Sequence record: OR352945.1
Direction: 5' to 3' (one strand)
Length of the DNA stretch: 64,000 nt
Source of the DNA: Escherichia phage AV115
The position numbers and the translations under genes are program-made. The notes beneath the pieces are model-generated. The model had not been told where the DNA came from and searched no databases. It saw only the letters and a program-made list of their open reading frames with translations. This document shows, piece after piece, positions 18,184 to 36,059 of this stretch; the first letter of the stretch is position 1, and each line of letters starts with the position of its first letter.

Positions 18184-19083
18184 TTATAGACCAGCTAACA
18201 GGTCATCGAGGTCACCATCGTCAGAAGACGAGGAACTCATGAAGTCATCTTCAGTTTTTGCAGAACCAAAGGCTTCCATGTCTTTATCAAAATCGTCAAG
18301 GTCAGAAGCAACTTTATCTGCAACAGAAGCTGCTGCGGCTGCTGCACCACCAAGAGCGGCAGTACCAAGAACTTGATTAAATTTAGTATTCAATTCTTCA
18401 AACGATTTGAACTTATCTTTAGAAGTCATTTCAGAAAGGTCGACCATTTGTTCGAACAATTCTTTCTGGAAAGATTCATCATCAATGTTTGGAATCGCAG
18501 ATTGATTCAGGAATTTAGATTCGTCGTAGTTACTGAAACCAGAAACCTGTTTAACTTTCAGCACAAAGTTAGCACCTTCCCACGGGCAAGTTACATCAAC
18601 AGGAGTTTCACCCATTTCAGTATCGACTGCAATCATTGCATTGATTTTGTCCCAAATCTTTTTACCGAAACGATATTTGAATACTTTACCTTCATTATCT
18701 GGAGCTTGAGGGTCTTTAACAACCAGAATATTAGCCCAATAAGAAGTTTTACGTTTCAGTTGAGAATATTCAGTTTTGTTGGTATTGTACAGGTCATTTT
18801 TACTAATGTACTGACATACAGGACAAGAGTCATAATCGCCGTGTGTAGATGAACAGGTTTCAATATACCATTTACCATTTTTCTTGAACCCGTGGTTAAC
18901 AAGAATTGTAAACGGAAGTGCGTCATCTGTTTTTGCCGGCAGGAAACGAATTACCGCTTGACCATTACCGGATGCATCGAGTTTCAGCTTCCATTCACCT
19001 TTATCTTCTGAAGAGAAACCTTTGTTACCATTCAGTTTAGCCATCTGAGCTGCGAGGTCTGCGGTACTTTTACGTTTAAACAT
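18184..19083 (-). CDS. 32: single-stranded DNA-binding protein gp32
   Basis: 299 aa; near-identical to recalled T4 gp32 including acidic C-terminus. Confidence 0.95.
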
Positions 19084-19200: not shown

Positions 19201-19854
19201 TTAATACTTACATGATTTGATTGTTTCTATGAACAATTTCTTAGCAGCATTTCTATCGATTTGAAGTATTTTTCGATATGCCTTTAATTTGGTAGAATAA
19301 TTTTGCCAGACTAAGTTATCGGTGAGTTCGTCGTGCTTATCTATAATATTCAAAAACGAGTCCAACAATAAGAAAGTTTCAAATGAAATTATATTGCTTT
19401 GTAGCAATTTAAATATGTAGCTCGACTGAACGTTGTTATTATAATCAAATATCTCTTGAAGCGCACTAACTTCAACTTTCTTACTGAAATAGTAGATGTT
19501 ACGTACGTCTTCAGCAAACGTCTCCTTGGCTTGTTTGAGACGTCCAATATATTCCCTATAGAAAACTAATGCATCAGCGTCTGATATCTCACCAATCCAT
19601 GCGTCTTGGTTAGCAACTAAGTTGCTTATGAATATCAAGGTGAGTTCCTTCAATTTATATTTCTCTGCTAGTTTTTCAAAGAAATATTTATCTCGGCGTT
19701 TTTGATACGCATTATCCGAAACACGCATGCACCAGTTATATTTGATTACGTCATACCGACCACCAAAGTGGTTTTTGCACATCAAGTATAGTTTATATAC
19801 TGATTTTCCATTAATATAACGTTCTCCGTCAGGAGGCATGCGTATTTTAATCAT
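19201..19854 (-). CDS. 59: helicase loader gp59
   Basis: 217 aa; near-identical to recalled T4 gp59. Confidence 0.9.
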   Translation of the reverse strand: MIKIRMPPDGERYINGKSVYKLYLMCKNHFGGRYDVIKYNWCMRVSDNAYQKRRDKYFFEKLAEKYKLKELTLIFISNLVANQDAWIGEISDADALVFYREYIGRLKQAKETFAEDVRNIYYFSKKVEVSALQEIFDYNNNVQSSYIFKLLQSNIISFETFLLLDSFLNIIDKHDELTDNLVWQNYSTKLKAYRKILQIDRNAAKKLFIETIKSCKY

Positions 19855-20530
19855 AGTTCCATCCAGGCCATTTTGAAGATTTAAGTCTATATGTAACTAA
19901 AGACGCAGAAATATTAAAAACATTTGAAACTTCTTTACACGAGGCGTATTTTACACCATCAATAATTATAGGTTTTTGTTTTTTAATAGTTCTTTCTTTA
20001 GAATGCGGCTTTGAATTTGCTATTCTAAGAGCTTCTTTGGTTGAATCAGGCATCGGCTTATTCGTTTTTCGCCCTTTTCGGACTTTACTCAAGGCCAATT
20101 TGTGAGCTTCAGATAGTTTCTTACCCTTATTAGGTGACGGTATTTTTCTTTCTAGTCTTGTTTTAGATACTTTAGCCTTAGTCTCTTCAGATCTAGGTTT
20201 ACCTAATTTAGAAAGTGAAATAGACCTTTTAGCTTCATCACTTTGTTTTTTACCAGGACCACCTTTACCACCGGGAACTAAGTTATAAGTATCATCTCGC
20301 AAAACAAAATCTTCATTAACCAATTCTGCTTCTTTTTTATAGGCGTCCTTGTCATTATCATATTCATAAAGAATTTCGGTATAAAAATTTTTTAGTCCAT
20401 ATTTAGCTTTGGCCGCTAATATAGCGCGGCCTGATCCAATATACCAATCTTTCTCTTTATGTTTTTTGTGTACGCCTATATAAATTTTACCATTTATTTT
20501 ATTGGTAGTTTTATACACAACGTATTTCAT
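19847..20530 (-). CDS. free-standing GIY-YIG homing endonuclease (seg-like, 227 aa)
   Basis: N-terminal VVYKTTNKINGKIYIGVH GIY-YIG motif, basic C-terminal DNA-binding region. Confidence 0.75.
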   Translation of the reverse strand: MKYVVYKTTNKINGKIYIGVHKKHKEKDWYIGSGRAILAAKAKYGLKNFYTEILYEYDNDKDAYKKEAELVNEDFVLRDDTYNLVPGGKGGPGKKQSDEAKRSISLSKLGKPRSEETKAKVSKTRLERKIPSPNKGKKLSEAHKLALSKVRKGRKTNKPMPDSTKEALRIANSKPHSKERTIKKQKPIIIDGVKYASCKEVSNVFNISASLVTYRLKSSKWPGWNYD

Positions 20531-20865
20531 AATAAGAAATCTAGCGTATTAGTTTTTTCACCACGAGCAACTGATGGGCGAAGCATGTTTTCGTCAATTG
20601 CTTCGCTTGTAATTTTTTCAACAATTCCTGTAGGAATAAATTTAGCAAATTGTGTTTCTGGAATAGAATTTTCTTCCAAGAAAGCAGTTGTTGCTTCTAA
20701 ATAAGACATACCAAATTGTTCAACCATGGATTCGATAATGAATCCGTTTTCTTGACGGTCAAGCAATTTAGCGATATCATCTTTATCGTGTTTTACTGCT
20801 AATTCTTGTTCAGATAAACCGGCCTCATCAACCGGTTTAATATCACTTAGTGAAAACTGTGTCAT
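20527..20865 (-). CDS. 33: late transcription co-activator gp33
   Basis: 112 aa; near-identical to recalled T4 gp33. Confidence 0.85.
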   Translation of the reverse strand: MTQFSLSDIKPVDEAGLSEQELAVKHDKDDIAKLLDRQENGFIIESMVEQFGMSYLEATTAFLEENSIPETQFAKFIPTGIVEKITSEAIDENMLRPSVARGEKTNTLDFLL

Positions 20866-21112
20866 AAAGCTCGACTACCTCTTCGTTTTCAGCTTCAAAT
20901 TGGTCACGAGCGTCTTTATGATAAAGAGCTAACAAACGATTAAACATTTTTCCATCGACACCAAGCTCTTCTTTAGCACGAGTACGAATGTCTTTAATCA
21001 GTTCATTATAACCAGAAATTTTAAGTTTGTTATCGGAAGCTTCCTTGACTAGTTTAGCCAGTTCTTCACCATGCACATCTTGATTAAATTCAACTGCTTC
21101 TTTCTTAGCCAT
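20843..21112 (-). CDS. dsbA: dsDNA-binding late transcription protein DsbA
   Basis: 89 aa from internal ATG (MAKKEAVEF...); track ORF has a 6-codon N-terminal extension. Confidence 0.7.
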   Translation of the reverse strand: MAKKEAVEFNQDVHGEELAKLVKEASDNKLKISGYNELIKDIRTRAKEELGVDGKMFNRLLALYHKDARDQFEAENEEVVELYDTVFTK

Positions 21113-21119
21113 GTTTACC

Positions 21120-22037
21120 TCAGAATTCATTAATTACACTTGTCAATTTAGAAAGACCAGATTTTACAAAGTATGAATAAATCTTGCCTTTAGGTTGTGG
21201 TTTATATGAGTTATAATACTCTATAATGGTTGAAGCAATATTATCAGGGATATAATCAAAATCAATGAGAACCAAATTTTCTTGATACCGTTTATATTCT
21301 TCTGCACTTAATAATACTTCAGCTTGAGAGCGGTCATTGGCAATTGCTTCAATAATCGTTGTTTTCATGCTTGGAGTTCGTTCACCATCAACTCTGGTAA
21401 ACCAGAAGTCACCACGAACTCGAACCGATGCAACACCGTCTTTACGGTCACCTTTAAGAATTTTAGTCATGCAATCAATTTCAGCAGAACCGTTCTTAAT
21501 TTTAACCCATTTTTTCTGTGGTGGCGACCACTGTTTAACGTTAGGATATTTGTGTAATTGTGTAAAGTCACCATCTGATGCAACAATACATACTTTATGT
21601 CCAGCTAATGACAAATATTTAGTTAATACACCGATATGGTCATCCGCTTCATACTTGTCAATATCCATTACAACGTATGGCATGTATTTCTTAATCTCAT
21701 CAACAACTTGATGGAGTGCAGTAAAATATCCTTCCCAATCCCACTTTGAAGCTTCACGATCGGTTTTACGATTTTTCTTGTAATAGTAAGCAAAGTCACG
21801 TCGCCAATAACCTGAAGTAGCATTATCCATACACAATACAAATTTTGTATAGCCTTGCTTACGGAACATCACTACGTTTTTACGAATTGAATTCAAGATT
21901 ACATGGCGAACCATCGGAACAGTAATTTTATCGCCGTCTTCAAAGTTGTTTAATGCGGCTGCCAATGCAATGTTACTAAAGTCGGCAAGTGCAATACCTT
22001 CTTTGTAATCTTCATCCAACATCATTTCTAAATCCAT
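21120..22037 (-). CDS. rnh: RNase H (5-prime to 3-prime exonuclease / flap endonuclease)
   Basis: 305 aa; near-identical to recalled T4 RNase H. Confidence 0.9.
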   Translation of the reverse strand: MDLEMMLDEDYKEGIALADFSNIALAAALNNFEDGDKITVPMVRHVILNSIRKNVVMFRKQGYTKFVLCMDNATSGYWRRDFAYYYKKNRKTDREASKWDWEGYFTALHQVVDEIKKYMPYVVMDIDKYEADDHIGVLTKYLSLAGHKVCIVASDGDFTQLHKYPNVKQWSPPQKKWVKIKNGSAEIDCMTKILKGDRKDGVASVRVRGDFWFTRVDGERTPSMKTTIIEAIANDRSQAEVLLSAEEYKRYQENLVLIDFDYIPDNIASTIIEYYNSYKPQPKGKIYSYFVKSGLSKLTSVINEF

Positions 22038-22064
22038 ATGAACCTCTTGTTCAGTTAGTCAACT

Positions 22065-22100
22065 TGTCTATAGTAACACACTCATTTGAAAGCGTAAACT
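22065..22100 (-). promoter_or_regulatory. T4-type early promoter for rnh
   Basis: Minus strand GTTTAC, 18 nt, TACTAT; back-to-back with gene 34 late promoter. Confidence 0.5.
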
Positions 22101-22102
22101 GG

Positions 22103-22110
22103 TATAAATA
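22103..22110 (+). promoter_or_regulatory. late promoter (TATAAATA) for gene 34
   Basis: Exact TATAAATA about 30 nt upstream of gene 34 ATG. Confidence 0.7.
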
Positions 22111-22140
22111 AGTATTATTGAAACAATAAAGGAAAAACGA

Positions 22141-25100
22141 ATGGCCGACATCAAACGTAAGTTCAGAGCCGAAGACGGTCTGGACGCCGGTGGCGACAAG
22201 ATTGTTAACGTAGCATTAGCCGACCGTACAGTAGGTACTGATGGCGTAAACGTTGACTTCCTGGTACAAGAAAACACCGTTCAAGTATATGATTCTACGC
22301 GTGGATATAACAGAGGATTTGTTGTTCTTTATGACAACCGCTTATATCAAGCAATAAATGATATCGTGTCTCCTTCCGGGGCATTTAACCTTTTACAATG
22401 GCGTGCAGTTCGTACTGATGCACAATGGATAACCGTCGCTTCTGGGACTTATCAACTTTCTTCAGGCGAATCGATTTCTGTTAACACTGGTGCCGGCAAT
22501 GATATGGTTTTCACGTTGCCAAATACTCCGGTTGATGGTGATACTGTTGTTTTGGCTGATATTGGTGGAAGAACCGGGACAGTTAAAGTACAGATTAACG
22601 CGTCTGTGCAGAGTATTTTAAACTTTAGAGGTGAACAAGTTCGTACAGTTTTAATGACGCGCCCACGTTCACAACTATTGTTTGTGTTTAGTAATCGTTT
22701 GTGGCAGATGTATATTATCGATTATGGTAAAGAATCAATCACTGTTACACCTGCGACACCATATCAAGCACAAGCAAATGATTTTATCGTTCGTCGTTTT
22801 ACTAGTGCAGCACCAATCAACATTACACTTCCACGTAATGCTAACAATGGTGATATAATCAGCCTAGTCGATTTAGATAGATTAAACCCACTGTATCATA
22901 CAATTGTTAAAACATTTGATGATACAACGTCTATTGGTGAAGTCGGGACTCATATTGCCGAAGGCAGAAATGACTCTGACGCGTTTTTTGTTTTTGATGC
23001 CGCAAATAGTTTATGGCGTATATGGGAAGGCGACCAGAAATCGCGTCTTCGTATTATCCGTGCGGATTCAAATATTCGTCCAAATGAAGAAGTTCTTATT
23101 TTTGGCACAAATAACGCTACAGCCGGAACTATTAATCTTACGCTGCCTTCCGGAATTTTGAGTGGTGACACTGTTAAAATTTCAATGAACTACATGCGTA
23201 AAGGCCAAACAGTAAAAATTAAAGCTGCCGAAGGTGATACAATTGCTTCTTCTGTCGCATTACTTCAGTTCCCTAAACGTTCTGAATATCCACCTGATGC
23301 TCAATGGGTTTCTGTTACTGAACTAGAATTCAATGGCACTACTTCATATGTTCCTGTGTTAGAATTAGCGTATATCGAAGACACTGTTGCTGGTACACGT
23401 TATTGGGTTGTTCAACAAAACGTCCCTACAGTAGAACGTGTTGATGCTGGAACTGATGCTACACGAGCTCGTTTAGGTGTTATTGCTCTTGCTACTCAAG
23501 CGCAAGCAAATGTTGATTTAGAGAATACTCCAGCTAAAGAAGTGGCTATTACTCCGGAAACATTGGCAAATCGTACAGCAACTGAAGCTCGACGTGGTAT
23601 CGCTAAAATTGCTACAACAGCACAAGTTAACCAGAATTCCACAGCATCATTTGTGGACGATACTATTGTTACGCCTAAAAAACTAAATGAGCGTACAGCA
23701 ACTGAAACTCGTCGCGGTCTTGCTGAAATTGCTACTCAGACCGAAACCGATGCTGGTCTTGATGACACAACGATTATTACACCTAAGAAATTGCAGGCAC
23801 GTCAGGGTTCTGAAACACTATCGGGTATAGTTAAATATGTATCAACTACTTCTGCTACTCCTGCTGAAACTCGTGGGGCTGCAGGCACTAACGTTTATAA
23901 TAAAGACACAACTACGTTAACTATTTCGCCTAAAGCTCTCGATCAGTATAAAGCGACTTCTACTCAACAGGGTGCTACTATTCTGGCTCTTGAAAGTGAA
24001 GTAATTGCTGGTCAATCCCAAGCAGGTTATTCTCATGCTGTAGTAACTCCTGAAACACTACATAAGAAAACTTCTACTGATGGACGTATTGGTTTAATTG
24101 AAATTGCTACGCAAGCAGAAACTAATGCTGGGACTGATTATACACGTGCAGTAACGCCTAAGACGTTAAATGATAGGAAAGCTACGGAAGGATTATCCGG
24201 CATAGCCGAACTTGCTACGCAAGTTGAATTTGATACTGGAACTGATGATACTCGTATCTCGACTCCACTGAAAATTAAAACTCATTTTGATTCTTCTGAC
24301 CGTACCAGTGTTAATTCTGATTCCGGACTTATTGAAGAAGGAACCTTGTGGAACCATTATACTCTTGATATTTCTAAAGCAAATGAAACACAACGTGGTA
24401 CACTTCGCGTAGCGACCCAGGCAGAATCTAATGCAGGAACTTTAGATGATGTTCTTATTACTCCTAAAAAGCTTTTAGGGACTAAGTCCACTGAAACGTC
24501 TGAAGGCGTAATTAAGGTTGCTACTCAGGCTGAAACTGTAACAGGAACTTCTGCTAATACTGCTGTATCTCCTAAGAATTTAAAATGGATTGTCCAGAAA
24601 GAACCAACATGGGCTGCTACTACAGCAATTCGCGGATTCGTTAAAACTTCATCCGGTTCTATTACATTCGTTGGTAATGATACAGTCGGTTCTACCCAAG
24701 ATTTAGAACTGTATGAGAAAAATAGCTATGCAGTATCACCATATGAATTAAACCGTGTATTGGCAAATTATTTGCCGTTAAAAGCAAAAGCCGTAGATAG
24801 TAATTTATTGGATGGTCTAGATTCATCTCAGTTCATTCGTAGGGACATCGCCCAGTCAGTTAATGGTTCACTAACCTTAACCCAACAAACGAATCTGAGT
24901 GCCCCTCTTGTATCATCTAGTACTGCTACGTTTGGTGGTTCAGTTTCGGCAAATAGTACATTAACTATTTCTAACTCTGGAACAGCTACTCGTCTGATTT
25001 TTGAAAAAGGACCTCAGTCCGGAACAAATCCTGCTCAAACGATGACTATCAGAGTTTGGGGAAATGAATTTGGTGGTGGTTCAGATACAACACGTTCTAC

Positions 25101-26016
25101 TGTATTTGAAGTTGGTGATGAAACATCTAATCACTTTTATTCTCAACGTAATAAAGCTGGGAATATAACGTTTAGCATTAATGGTACTGTGATGCCAATA
25201 AATGTTAACGCTTCAGGCACGTTAAATGCGAATGGTGTAGCAACATTTGGTCGTTCAGTTACAGCCAATGGTGAATTCATTAGCAAGTCTGCAAATGCTT
25301 TTAGAGCAATAAACGGTGATTATGGATTCTTTATTCGTAATGATGCCTCTAATACCTATTTTTTGCTCACTGCAGCCGGTGATCAGACTGGTGGTTTTAA
25401 TGGATTACGCCCATTATTAATTAATAATCAATCCGGTCAGATTACAATTGGTGAAGGCTTAATCATCGCCAAAGGTGTTACTATAAATTCAGGCGGTTTG
25501 ACTGTTAACTCGAGAATTCGTTCTCAGGGTATTAAAACATCTGATTTATATACTCGTGCGCCAACATCTGATACTGTAGGATTCTGGTCAATCGATATTA
25601 ACGATTCAGCCACTTATAACCAGTTCCCAGGTTATTTTAAAATGGTTGAAAAAACTAATGAAGTGACTGGGCTTCCATACTTAGAACGCGGCGAAGAAGT
25701 TAAATCTCCTGGTACATTGACTCAGTTTGGTAATACACTTGATTCACTTTACCAAGATTGGATTACTTATCCAACAACTCCAGAAGCACGTACCACTCGC
25801 TGGACACGTACATGGCAGAAAACTAAAAATTCTTGGTCAAGTTTTGTTCAGGTATTTGATGGAGGTAACCCTCCTCAACCATCTGATATTGGTGCTTTAC
25901 CATCTGATAATGCTACAATGGGGAATCTTACTATTCGTGATTTCTTAAGGATTGGTAATGTCCGCATTATTCCAGACCCTGTGAATAAATCTGTTAAATT
26001 CGAGTGGATTGAATAA
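22141..26016 (+). CDS. 34: long tail fibre proximal subunit gp34
   Basis: 1291 aa; late promoter upstream; internal repeats ending in ATQAE..AG. Confidence 0.95.
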   Translation: MADIKRKFRAEDGLDAGGDKIVNVALADRTVGTDGVNVDFLVQENTVQVYDSTRGYNRGFVVLYDNRLYQAINDIVSPSGAFNLLQWRAVRTDAQWITVASGTYQLSSGESISVNTGAGNDMVFTLPNTPVDGDTVVLADIGGRTGTVKVQINASVQSILNFRGEQVRTVLMTRPRSQLLFVFSNRLWQMYIIDYGKESITVTPATPYQAQANDFIVRRFTSAAPINITLPRNANNGDIISLVDLDRLNPLYHTIVKTFDDTTSIGEVGTHIAEGRNDSDAFFVFDAANSLWRIWEGDQKSRLRIIRADSNIRPNEEVLIFGTNNATAGTINLTLPSGILSGDTVKISMNYMRKGQTVKIKAAEGDTIASSVALLQFPKRSEYPPDAQWVSVTELEFNGTTSYVPVLELAYIEDTVAGTRYWVVQQNVPTVERVDAGTDATRARLGVIALATQAQANVDLENTPAKEVAITPETLANRTATEARRGIAKIATTAQVNQNSTASFVDDTIVTPKKLNERTATETRRGLAEIATQTETDAGLDDTTIITPKKLQARQGSETLSGIVKYVSTTSATPAETRGAAGTNVYNKDTTTLTISPKALDQYKATSTQQGATILALESEVIAGQSQAGYSHAVVTPETLHKKTSTDGRIGLIEIATQAETNAGTDYTRAVTPKTLNDRKATEGLSGIAELATQVEFDTGTDDTRISTPLKIKTHFDSSDRTSVNSDSGLIEEGTLWNHYTLDISKANETQRGTLRVATQAESNAGTLDDVLITPKKLLGTKSTETSEGVIKVATQAETVTGTSANTAVSPKNLKWIVQKEPTWAATTAIRGFVKTSSGSITFVGNDTVGSTQDLELYEKNSYAVSPYELNRVLANYLPLKAKAVDSNLLDGLDSSQFIRRDIAQSVNGSLTLTQQTNLSAPLVSSSTATFGGSVSANSTLTISNSGTATRLIFEKGPQSGTNPAQTMTIRVWGNEFGGGSDTTRSTVFEVGDETSNHFYSQRNKAGNITFSINGTVMPINVNASGTLNANGVATFGRSVTANGEFISKSANAFRAINGDYGFFIRNDASNTYFLLTAAGDQTGGFNGLRPLLINNQSGQITIGEGLIIAKGVTINSGGLTVNSRIRSQGIKTSDLYTRAPTSDTVGFWSIDINDSATYNQFPGYFKMVEKTNEVTGLPYLERGEEVKSPGTLTQFGNTLDSLYQDWITYPTTPEARTTRWTRTWQKTKNSWSSFVQVFDGGNPPQPSDIGALPSDNATMGNLTIRDFLRIGNVRIIPDPVNKSVKFEWIE
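23460..24600 (+). repeat. tandem degenerate coding repeats within gp34 (about 7 copies of a roughly 40-aa unit)
   Basis: Recurring ...T.E.RRG.A.IAT.A...AG... units in the translated sequence. Confidence 0.5.
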
Positions 26017-33292: not shown

Positions 33293-33565
33293 TTAGTTGT
33301 TAGAATACATCGCTAAATGACGATAAATATTTTCAAAACCTTCATTGAATTCACTAATCAGTGTTTTCTTTTCTTCGGCAGTTAAATTTGTAATTAGTTT
33401 TCTGAACGAATTCTGATTTAACTGCCGACCATCTTTTTTAATTCCAATCTCATTCAAGAATCCGATGAAACTTGCTCGGTCTTCAACAATATCTTCCCTA
33501 GAGAATTTAATCAAAATAGAAGCAATAGTAATAATTTCACGTACGATTTCAATGTCTTTATTCAT
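33293..33565 (-). CDS. asiA: anti-sigma70 factor AsiA
   Basis: 90 aa; near-identical to recalled T4 AsiA. Confidence 0.9.
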   Translation of the reverse strand: MNKDIEIVREIITIASILIKFSREDIVEDRASFIGFLNEIGIKKDGRQLNQNSFRKLITNLTAEEKKTLISEFNEGFENIYRHLAMYSNN

Positions 33566-35426: not shown

Positions 35427-36059
35427 TCACAGTACGTTAGTTACAAGGGTAATGATTTCTTTGGACACATTAGGGAAGTCAATGTAAGTATATTTACCAC
35501 CGATCTTAATCTTAACATCATTTTCAAGAGAAGTAAACAGCTTTGATTCAGTTTCTGACATGTTGTATGCAAAGATTCTAAGAGCGCCATCTCGTCGAAT
35601 TTCAATTTGGCGAATGCCTAGAACTCGTTTAGCGAATCGAACTTCCAAGTTACTACGGTTTTCACCAATTTCTTTAACTTCAACTTTATCTTTAATATTT
35701 TCAAAAACAAAGTTTGCTAATTCATGCATTTCAGGAGTAACTCCACGTGCTTTTCTAGTGTTACGTTTCTGAAGAAGTTCTGGAGCATTTTCTTGGGCAA
35801 AGAGGTCTGCAGCTTTTTGGATAATATCCATTGCTTCGCCTGTTGCTATAAGTCCATCACCAGATTTTTCGACTAAACCTTTCTTAATCAATACACCAAT
35901 GTTAGAGTTAACAACCGATGCATTGTATTCCGCTTCCAGGGCTTCACGGACATTGGCAGCAGTGGTGAAGTTGTTCTTAATGATATAAACCATTATTGCA
36001 GCAGTTTTTTCATTCAGAGCGTTTTCAGAAGCTTTGATGATGTAAGTAACTTTAGACAT
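35427..36059 (-). CDS. motA: middle transcription activator MotA
   Basis: 210 aa; N-terminal half near-identical to recalled T4 MotA. Confidence 0.85.
   Translation of the reverse strand: MSKVTYIIKASENALNEKTAAIMVYIIKNNFTTAANVREALEAEYNASVVNSNIGVLIKKGLVEKSGDGLIATGEAMDIIQKAADLFAQENAPELLQKRNTRKARGVTPEMHELANFVFENIKDKVEVKEIGENRSNLEVRFAKRVLGIRQIEIRRDGALRIFAYNMSETESKLFTSLENDVKIKIGGKYTYIDFPNVSKEIITLVTNVL

Follow-up and report, generated by a model that had tools for sequence, protein, structure and literature searches.

A conserved divergent control region, probably with an early promoter for rnh and a late promoter for gene 34, in the rnh/gene 34 gap of Escherichia phage AV115

The gap between rnh and gene 34 in Escherichia phage AV115 is very probably a conserved divergent control region, with an early promoter for rnh on one strand and a late promoter for gene 34 on the other, and not an origin of replication. 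We analysed a stretch of 64,000 nucleotides of this phage (OR352945.1), referred to here as the window. A preliminary description, made from the sequence alone, had placed the two promoters back to back in a gap of roughly 100 bp, the early promoter ending 3 nt from the late box, and had proposed that this A+T-rich region might also serve replication initiation, with reference to an origin in the gene 34 area of T4. The compact divergent arrangement is borne out, as the gap measures 103 nt (22038–22140) and all of the promoter elements lie within 22065–22110. The proposed origin activity of the gap fares badly, and the predicted homologue of the T4 origin is found elsewhere, inside gene 34.

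The window derives from a Mosigvirus, with 99–100% identity to APCEc01, JS09 and SA79RD, while T4-like Tequatrovirus genomes are ~77% identical to it. T4 gene order is kept locally around rnh and gene 34 (Table 1). The rnh product, 76% identical to its T4 counterpart, matches the Pfam families RNaseH_C (E = 6e-60) and 5_3_exonuc_N, and rnh is the first gene of a leftward unit, rnh-dsbA-33-(seg-like ORF)-59-32. On the other strand gene 34, the product of which is 83% identical to T4 gp34 over its full length, is followed by genes 35 and 36, the rightward tail-fibre unit comprising genes 34–38. Locally, Pfam confirmed RNase H, DsbA, gp33, gp59 and gp36. Several phage regulators of transcription were also found, namely MotA, AsiA and gp33 (Pfam Trans_coact), while genes 55 and 45 were not recognised among the ORFs examined. 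The ORF list holds no minus-strand gene upstream of rnh, and the leftward unit therefore needs a promoter in the gap.

Table 1. Features of the AV115 window bearing on the rnh/gene 34 boundary. Positions are those of the window; promoter elements and starts are predicted from sequence.
Feature	Position	Strand	Description	Basis
Gene 32	18184..19083	-		
Gene 59	19201..19854	-		
Extra (seg-like) ORF	19847..20530	-		
Gene 33	20527..20865	-		
dsbA	20843..21130	-		
rnh	21120..22037	-	T4-type RNase H / 5'-3' exonuclease, 305 aa	ORF list
PmdsbA homologue	21213..21237	-	TGCTTCA-12 nt-TATTAT, inside rnh 3' end	Middle-promoter pattern match
Possible small hairpin	22039..22053	-	UGAAC-AAGAG-GUUCA in rnh 5' UTR, 1 nt before AUG	
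Predicted rnh transcript start	22063	-	7 nt downstream of -10; 5' UTR ~25 nt	
rnh -10	22075..22070	-	TACTAT; plus strand reads ATAGTA	
rnh extended -10	22078..22076	-	TGn (TGT), precedes TACTAT; part of GTGTTACTAT	
MotA-box core position of rnh promoter	22093..22090	-	GCTT at -30..-27, directly after GTTTAC	
rnh -35 hexamer	22099..22094	-	GTTTAC at -36..-31; plus strand reads GTAAAC	
Gene 34 late box	22103-22110	+	TATAAATA at -13..-6; 30 nt before gene 34 ATG, facing gene 34	
Gene 34	22141..26016	+	Long-tail-fibre proximal subunit, 1291 aa	ORF list
T4 oriG unwinding-element homologue	24271..24290	-	Core GTTTTAATTTT at 24281..24271, conserved	
P34i homologue	24349..24383	-	MotA box TTTGCTTTA at 24383..24375, 13-nt spacer, TATAAT at 24361..24356	
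AsiA	33293..33565		AsiA, E = 2e-32	Pfam
MotA	35427..36059		MotA_activ, E = 1e-39, and MotCF	Pfam

Read in the rnh sense, the gap runs ...ACT TATTTATA CCA GTTTAC GCTTTCAAATGAGTGTGT TACTAT AGACAAGTTGACTAACTGAACAAGAGGTTCAT ATG, and here the positions of GTTTAC, of the MotA-box core and of the late box (-13..-6) are numbered as defined for RB69 (PMC1524935). The two hexamers of the rnh promoter are separated by 18 nt; taking TTTACG as the -35 shortens the spacer to 17 nt. The -10 region, GAGTGTGT-TACTAT, has T at -12, A at -11 and T at -7 with a GT-rich stretch upstream, and it fits the early motif quoted as TGTG(A/G)TA(C/T)(A/T)AT; its GTGTTACTAT tail is common to the rnh site and three other early-class sites in the window. 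Further upstream, the zone of a possible UP element (-40..-60; 22103–22123) is A or T in 19 of its 21 bases (90%), and the least stable 40-mer of the gap lies there. Placing the start 7 nt downstream of the -10, the rule used in Table 1, reproduces the published T4 starts at 150,727 (Pe148.6) and 153,011 (P34i). A generic sigma-70 scan passed over the rnh site because it scores only 8/12 against TTGACA/TATAAT; by its sequence the site is thus a T4-class early promoter and not a textbook E. coli promoter. GTTTAC also occurs inside gene 34 (22251..22223), but the -10 there, TACGGT, is poor, and this match is regarded as a chance occurrence.

The class to which the rnh site belongs is strongly enriched in the window. 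Compared with 100 dinucleotide-preserving shuffles of the window, searched with class-specific patterns, GTTTAC-N18-TAnnAT occurs 12 times against 0.25 expected (~48-fold; maximum of 2 in the 100 shuffles), and all 12 occurrences are on the minus strand, the strand of the early genes. The looser pattern GTTTAC-N17..19-TAnnnT was likewise observed 23 times against 2.9 expected. The late box TATAAATA is slightly depleted (5 observed, 7.5 expected), and every one of the five copies is intergenic and faces the next ORF (gene 32, gene 34, gene 36 and two small ORFs). That an early site and a late box, each facing its own gene, should share a single gap of 103 nt cannot reasonably be put down to coincidence.

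The late box is separated from the -35 hexamer of the early promoter by exactly 3 nt (TGG, 22100–22102), just as had been described, so that its bases correspond to -40..-47 of the early promoter and fall within the early UP-element zone. From the position of the box, the gene 34 transcript is predicted to start at ~22116–22117, upstream of a Shine-Dalgarno sequence, AAGGA, at 22129–22133. The same A+T-rich bases may thus be shared by the early and the late promoter, at different times. Our literature search found no experimental mapping of the T4 gene 34 late promoter, and a review of late transcription does not include gene 34. The promoter is reportedly among the T4 late-promoter lists of Miller et al. 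2003. A recent dRNA-seq preprint gives 150 T4 start sites (bioRxiv 10.1101/2024.04.04.588121).

The corresponding region of T4 (AF158101) is built in the same way, with GTTTAC-18 nt-TATAAT, AAG and then the identical TATAAATA on the gene 34 strand, in a gap of 104 nt rather than 103 nt and with the same 3-nt spacing. The two phages differ at the -10 (TACTAT in the window, the weaker of the two, vs TATAAT in T4), at -30..-27 (GCTT vs TTTA) and in the 3 nt before the late box (TGG vs AAG). The T4 rnh promoter is known as Pe148.6, its unit extending from 150,727 to 146,948 (Patterson-West et al., 2018; PMC6024815), and 150,727 is exactly 7 nt downstream of the T4 -10 as we read it. Pe148.6 RNA was detected by primer extension 1 min after infection, and the product was also obtained in vitro from T4 DNA (PMC6024815). 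The early promoter proposed for AV115 therefore has a mapped homologue.

A second counterpart comes from RB69, the type Mosigvirus, for which the promoters Pe:149309, Pm:149298 and Pl:149286 were predicted (Nolan et al., 2006; PMC1524935), all three of them inside the RB69 rnh/34 gap (149233–149352, 120 nt). The core TTTACGCTTTC ... GTTACTAT is identical in RB69 and the window, while the -35 reads ATTTAC in RB69 and GTTTAC in the window, and the late box stands 15 nt rather than 3 nt from it. The RB69 rnh site was assigned to both the early and the middle class, and a late promoter was placed on the other strand; these assignments are predictions only. In GenBank, OL960576, which is 99.7% identical to AV115 in this region, is annotated with an early and a late promoter at the positions described here.

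To place these arrangements in a wider setting, we compared the rnh/34 gaps of 17 Straboviridae-type phages from GenBank, 14 of them in 12 named genera and the other three in lineages without a genus: ST2 (RB69-like), Ac42 and PSTCR6. A late box of the form (T/A/C)ATAAATA was present on the gene 34 strand in 17 of the 17 gaps, an rnh promoter was recognisable in most, and the rnh -10 read TACTAT or TATAAT in 14. The distance between late box and rnh promoter varies, being 3 nt in the window and T4, 0 in LC53 (Winklervirus), 7 nt in QL01 (Dhakavirus) and 15 nt in RB69 and ST2. Since it varies among genera, the 3-nt spacing is not a conserved functional coupling; judging from these comparisons it is a product of the short gap, with no required coupling. 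Karamvirus, Gelderlandvirus, Jiaodavirus and Marfavirus resemble the window in having divergent rnh and gene 34 promoters in a short gap (67–85 nt), but their rnh promoter is, unlike that of the window, of the MotA-box type (TGCTTCA, TGCTTTA or TGCTAT), and the late box overlaps the rnh -10 on the opposite strand (TATTTATAAT). In several genera this overlap of rnh -10 and gene 34 late box is base for base. The MotA-lacking controls, RB49 and K41P2, were uninformative: the RB49 record is unannotated, and in K41P2 (Slopekvirus) the gene upstream of rnh is annotated as a late sigma factor and not as gene 34.

The survey also bears on how the rnh promoter itself is recognised. T4, JB75 and QL01 have the early hexamer GTTTAC with no MotA-like core; Merci, Marfa and VR20 have canonical MotA boxes (TGCTTCA or TGCTTTA) 12–13 nt from the -10; CkP1, CW742, STP4a, KLB31 and Q7622 have TGCTAT, TGCTAC or TGCTGC in the place of the MotA box; and the window, RB69, ST2 and LC53 have an early-like hexamer followed directly by GCTTTC. 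The MotA box is defined as (a/t)(a/t)(a/t)TGCTT(t/c)A, 12 +/- 1 bp upstream of the -10, and the window string TTA-CGCTTTC matches TGCTTyA at 5 of 7 positions with a spacer of 12 nt; the rnh site does not match the strict middle-promoter pattern. Across these phages, the promoter slot of rnh may drift between an early form (T4, Dhakavirus), a hybrid form (Mosigvirus, Winklervirus) and a MotA form (Jiaodavirus, Marfavirus, Gaprivervirus, Karamvirus and others).

It is quite possible, though short of probable, that the rnh promoter of AV115 works in a dual mode, first as an early (sigma-70) and then as a MotA/AsiA middle promoter with a single -10. In the early mode, region 4 of sigma-70 on GTTTAC would serve the -10 first; in the middle mode, once AsiA has remodelled sigma-70, MotA on the abutting box with its GCTT core would serve the same -10, which would keep expression of rnh through gene 32 going after region 4 has been remodelled. 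Among the RB69 predictions, comprising 58 Pe and 32 Pm (PMC1524935), the two classes coincide at three sites, and the rnh site alone is solid in both, with scores of 18.9 and 16.8. In T4, Pe148.6 RNA drops at 5 min in a motA amber infection, an effect that the authors left unexplained; they saw no recognizable Pm sequence at Pe148.6 (PMC6024815). MotA can act on boxes that depart from the consensus, one example being the ACTT centre of P46 (PMC2988021); a similar ACTT centre is present in T4 Pe148.6, which retains TACTTTA 14 nt from its -10. If true, the dual mode would be a candidate explanation for the MotA dependence of the T4 promoter. Against the dual mode stand the imperfect box of the window and the enrichment of the relaxed pattern GCTT-N13..15-TAnnnT, which is only weak (58 observed, 36 expected).

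A stronger version, in which rnh is a middle gene, its promoter used mainly by MotA and AsiA and GTTTAC secondary, appears unlikely. It would account for the placing of GCTT at the canonical 12-nt spacing, for the fall of Pe148.6 RNA in the motA mutant and, given the tolerance of MotA, for an imperfect box; canonical or near-canonical boxes do occur at the same place in Jiaodavirus, Marfa, Gaprivervirus, Karamvirus, Gelderlandvirus and Kanagawavirus, and the score of RB69 Pm:149298 is mid-range for its class. Yet the AV115 site carries the full early signature (GTTTAC, TGn, GTGTTACTAT) that is common to the window's other early promoters, and its T4 homologue is already active at 1 min, too soon for MotA to act. 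A middle promoter usually depends on an excellent -10 (PMC2988021), and TACTAT falls short of this, while the box itself departs from the consensus at two of seven positions. We therefore retain the early promoter as the primary reading of the rnh site.

T4 does have an origin in the gene 34 area, but that origin lies well away from the gap. The T4 record puts oriG, or ori(34), at 152,947, or 2,138 nt into gene 34, and its primer RNA is on the minus strand, antisense to the gene. The promoter that drives T4 oriG is P34i, a middle promoter starting at 153,011 (Hinton's Table 1; PMC2988021), and deletion analysis delimited the origin to ~100 bp holding P34i and a downstream unwinding element (PMC3016281). 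As we read it, T4 P34i consists of TTTGCTTCA, 13 nt and TATAAT, followed ~60 nt later by GGTTTTAATTTTTAA. By alignment with T4, the window has a homologue of this promoter that matches the strict middle-promoter pattern (TGCTTTA-13 nt-TATAAT). Its transcript is predicted to start at 24349, which is 2208 nt into gene 34, and to run antisense to that gene; T4 and the window have in common the minus strand, a transcript directed toward rnh, the 13-nt spacer and TATAAT. The core of the unwinding element is conserved as well, and the point at which the T4 rep_origin is annotated corresponds to ~24285 in the window. When six genera are aligned, no variation is seen at 8 of the 12 third codon positions inside the P34i promoter, as against 8 of 73 over the 220 nt that flank it (Fisher p = 9e-5), so the constraint on P34i exceeds that imposed by encoding gp34. 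Compared with T4, the window has an unwinding stretch of lower A+T content (19th percentile for its least stable 40-mer, vs 1.6% in T4), and for this reason origin activity at the window's P34i is likely but not assured.

Aligned with T4, the gap pairs with the T4 rnh/34 gap and not with oriG; on this comparison the gap is not the ori(34) homologue, which is instead predicted at ~24271–24383 inside gene 34. The possibility that the gap, or its A+T-rich part, is nevertheless an origin in its own right, at which a promoter transcript would form an R-loop and prime the leading strand, is highly improbable. Some observations speak for it. The gap is only mildly A+T-rich, at 30.1% G+C against 37.6% for the window and with 8.7% of all 103-nt segments of the window at least as A+T-rich, but the 40-mer at 22095–22134 is among the 0.6% least stable in the window, the T4 gap being similar (0.1%). 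The gap is, in addition, where transcription diverges and where cumulative GC skew reaches its minimum, a feature noted near oriE, oriF and oriG (Kreuzer and Brister review). An early promoter is believed to be required for T4 oriE, and a late one possibly for oriC (PMC3016281), so that in principle an origin could use a promoter of another mode than the middle one.

Several observations nonetheless argue against an origin in the gap. The conserved oriG element is 2.2 kb away, inside coding sequence, and is of the middle rather than the early or late mode, and none of oriA to oriG in the Kreuzer and Brister review is at the rnh/34 boundary. The T4 origin model calls for a promoter with a downstream unwinding element (PMC3016281), whereas the unstable stretch of the gap is upstream of the early promoter, which is the wrong geometry for that model; the 100 nt transcribed from the rnh start rank only at the 9th percentile of instability. 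The unstable stretch would be crossed by the late transcript alone, and late transcription follows replication. Searches for repeats and tandem repeats in and near the gap returned short two-copy chance matches only, with no iterons and no tandem array. Also highly improbable is that the plus-strand box is, instead of or in addition to a gp55 late promoter, a sigma-70 extended -10 (TGgTATAAA) giving some early transcription of gene 34, since the TG one base upstream of TATAAA (22100–22108; 5/6 match to a -10) is missing from T4 (AAG) and JB75 (AGG) and shows no conservation in other phages, no -35 match stands at a suitable distance, the sigma-70 scan did not list this site, and the conserved unit is the full 8-mer TATAAATA in front of a late structural gene.

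The 5' UTR of rnh may contain a small hairpin, with the Shine-Dalgarno sequence GAGG (22043–22046) in and adjoining its loop. The arms are kept in 13 phages, with changes on both sides of the stem to UGAAU/AUUCA in STP4a and Marfa and to UAAAC/GUUUA in Ac42. In folding of the rnh 5' UTR, the hairpin was not the minimum-energy structure and the z-score was 0. An Rfam search of 21900–24600 at a permissive threshold gave no match, and an IMG/VR search with RNase H returned 21 loci, most of them distant and showing no obvious counterpart of the conserved rnh leader upstream.

Taking the gap as a divergent control region, we propose that it separates a leftward replication and late-transcription unit (rnh-dsbA-33-59-32) from the rightward tail-fibre unit (34–38). 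Within the first minute of infection, unmodified host sigma-70 polymerase would bind the UP zone, GTTTAC, TGT and TACTAT, and early transcription would proceed leftward from ~22063 through rnh, dsbA, 33, 59 and 32. The PmdsbA homologue (21237..21213), the T4 counterpart of which is listed in Hinton's Table 1 (PMC2988021) and was assayed by others (PMC6024815), would add to leftward transcription together with other middle promoters, and MotA on the hybrid box may contribute. After replication, polymerase carrying gp55 and gp33 and activated by the gp45 clamp would open TATAAATA, and late transcription would proceed rightward from ~22116 into genes 34–35. The footprints of the two polymerases would overlap, the late box being inside the early UP zone, but as the promoters would be used at different times they need not compete. 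Both the start sites and the timing in AV115 are extrapolated from T4.

The promoter reading is thus supported, but it was already known: the early promoter has been mapped in T4, the arrangement was predicted for RB69 in 2006, and it is annotated in OL960576. The GCTT at -30..-27 of the rnh promoter adds one modest new point. For AV115 itself, the finding amounts to a correct annotation of where the rnh-dsbA-33-59-32 and tail-fibre units start. For the wider family, the conservation of synonymous sites at P34i across six genera argues that the function of oriG, or at least its antisense promoter, is widely retained, and the switching of the rnh slot among early, hybrid and MotA forms from genus to genus offers a natural series for the evolution of sigma appropriation.

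The leader of rnh ends in a short inverted repeat, UGAAC-loop-GUUCA, whose loop contains the rnh Shine-Dalgarno sequence, GAG(G). The repeat is also present at the same place in comparison loci from other T4-like phages (L001, L006-L009, L031-L036 and L040), and it is unchanged in 10 of the 13 phages compared. In the others it reads UGAAU/AUUCA (STP4a and Marfa) or UAAAC/GUUUA (Ac42); change has therefore occurred on both sides without the pairing ever being broken. The stem is weak, and minimum-energy fold prediction gives a different structure. The upstream sequence ACTAAyTGAAC is strongly conserved as well.

Features in and around the rnh/gene 34 region
Feature	Position	Strand	Remarks
5-bp inverted repeat UGAAC-loop-GUUCA	22039-22053	-	end of rnh 5' UTR
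Second GTTTACGC... match	22223-22251	-	antisense, within start of gene 34
P34i, middle promoter	24349-24386	-	antisense, inside gene 34; also in L001, L042-L045
Extra ORF, 227 aa	19847-20530	-	between genes 59 and 33, overlapping each at one end

The rnh/34 boundary is also a local minimum of cumulative GC skew (window 21800-22100), and both GC and AT skew reverse sign there, a reversal that tracks the switch of coding strand. In the genera of STP4a, CkP1, CW742, Merci and Marfa (rnh/34 gaps L009, L031, L032, L033 and L034), where the gap is down to 67-85 nt, the -10 of rnh (TATAAT) shares bases with the gene 34 late box TATAAATA of the other strand (TATTTATAAT). In the Merci annotation gene 34 starts directly adjoining rnh; its start codon looks to have been mis-called. 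A second early-type match, within the start of gene 34, emerged from the repeat search as a 13-nt near-repeat of the rnh promoter's TGAAAGCGTAAAC; its -10 is poor (TACGGT), and as a second promoter it is probably a chance match.

Deeper inside gene 34, the MotA box and -10 of P34i are retained across six genera although the gp34 amino acids differ there. For example, where LE is replaced by SK the MotA box changes from TGCTTCA to TGCTTTA, either of which fits the consensus. RB69 carries an identical P34i sequence (record position 151,593), and this promoter is not among the middle promoters listed for RB69 in 2006 (Nolan et al., 2006; PMC1524935).

The extra ORF looks like a Seg-like homing endonuclease, because in Pfam it matches a DNA-binding domain of the I-TevI type (E=3e-12) and, weakly, SegE GIY-YIG. 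The otherwise near-identical phage APCEc01 lacks this ORF, and its genes 59 and 33 abut. SegG of T4 is located elsewhere, between genes 32 and 59.

Across the whole window, strict middle-promoter matches (12/13) and strict early matches (12/12) are far above expectation, unlike TATAAATA, which is slightly under-represented (5 observed versus 7.5 expected) and occurs in none of the ORFs of at least 90 aa. This depletion and absence fit with stray late promoters being selected against.
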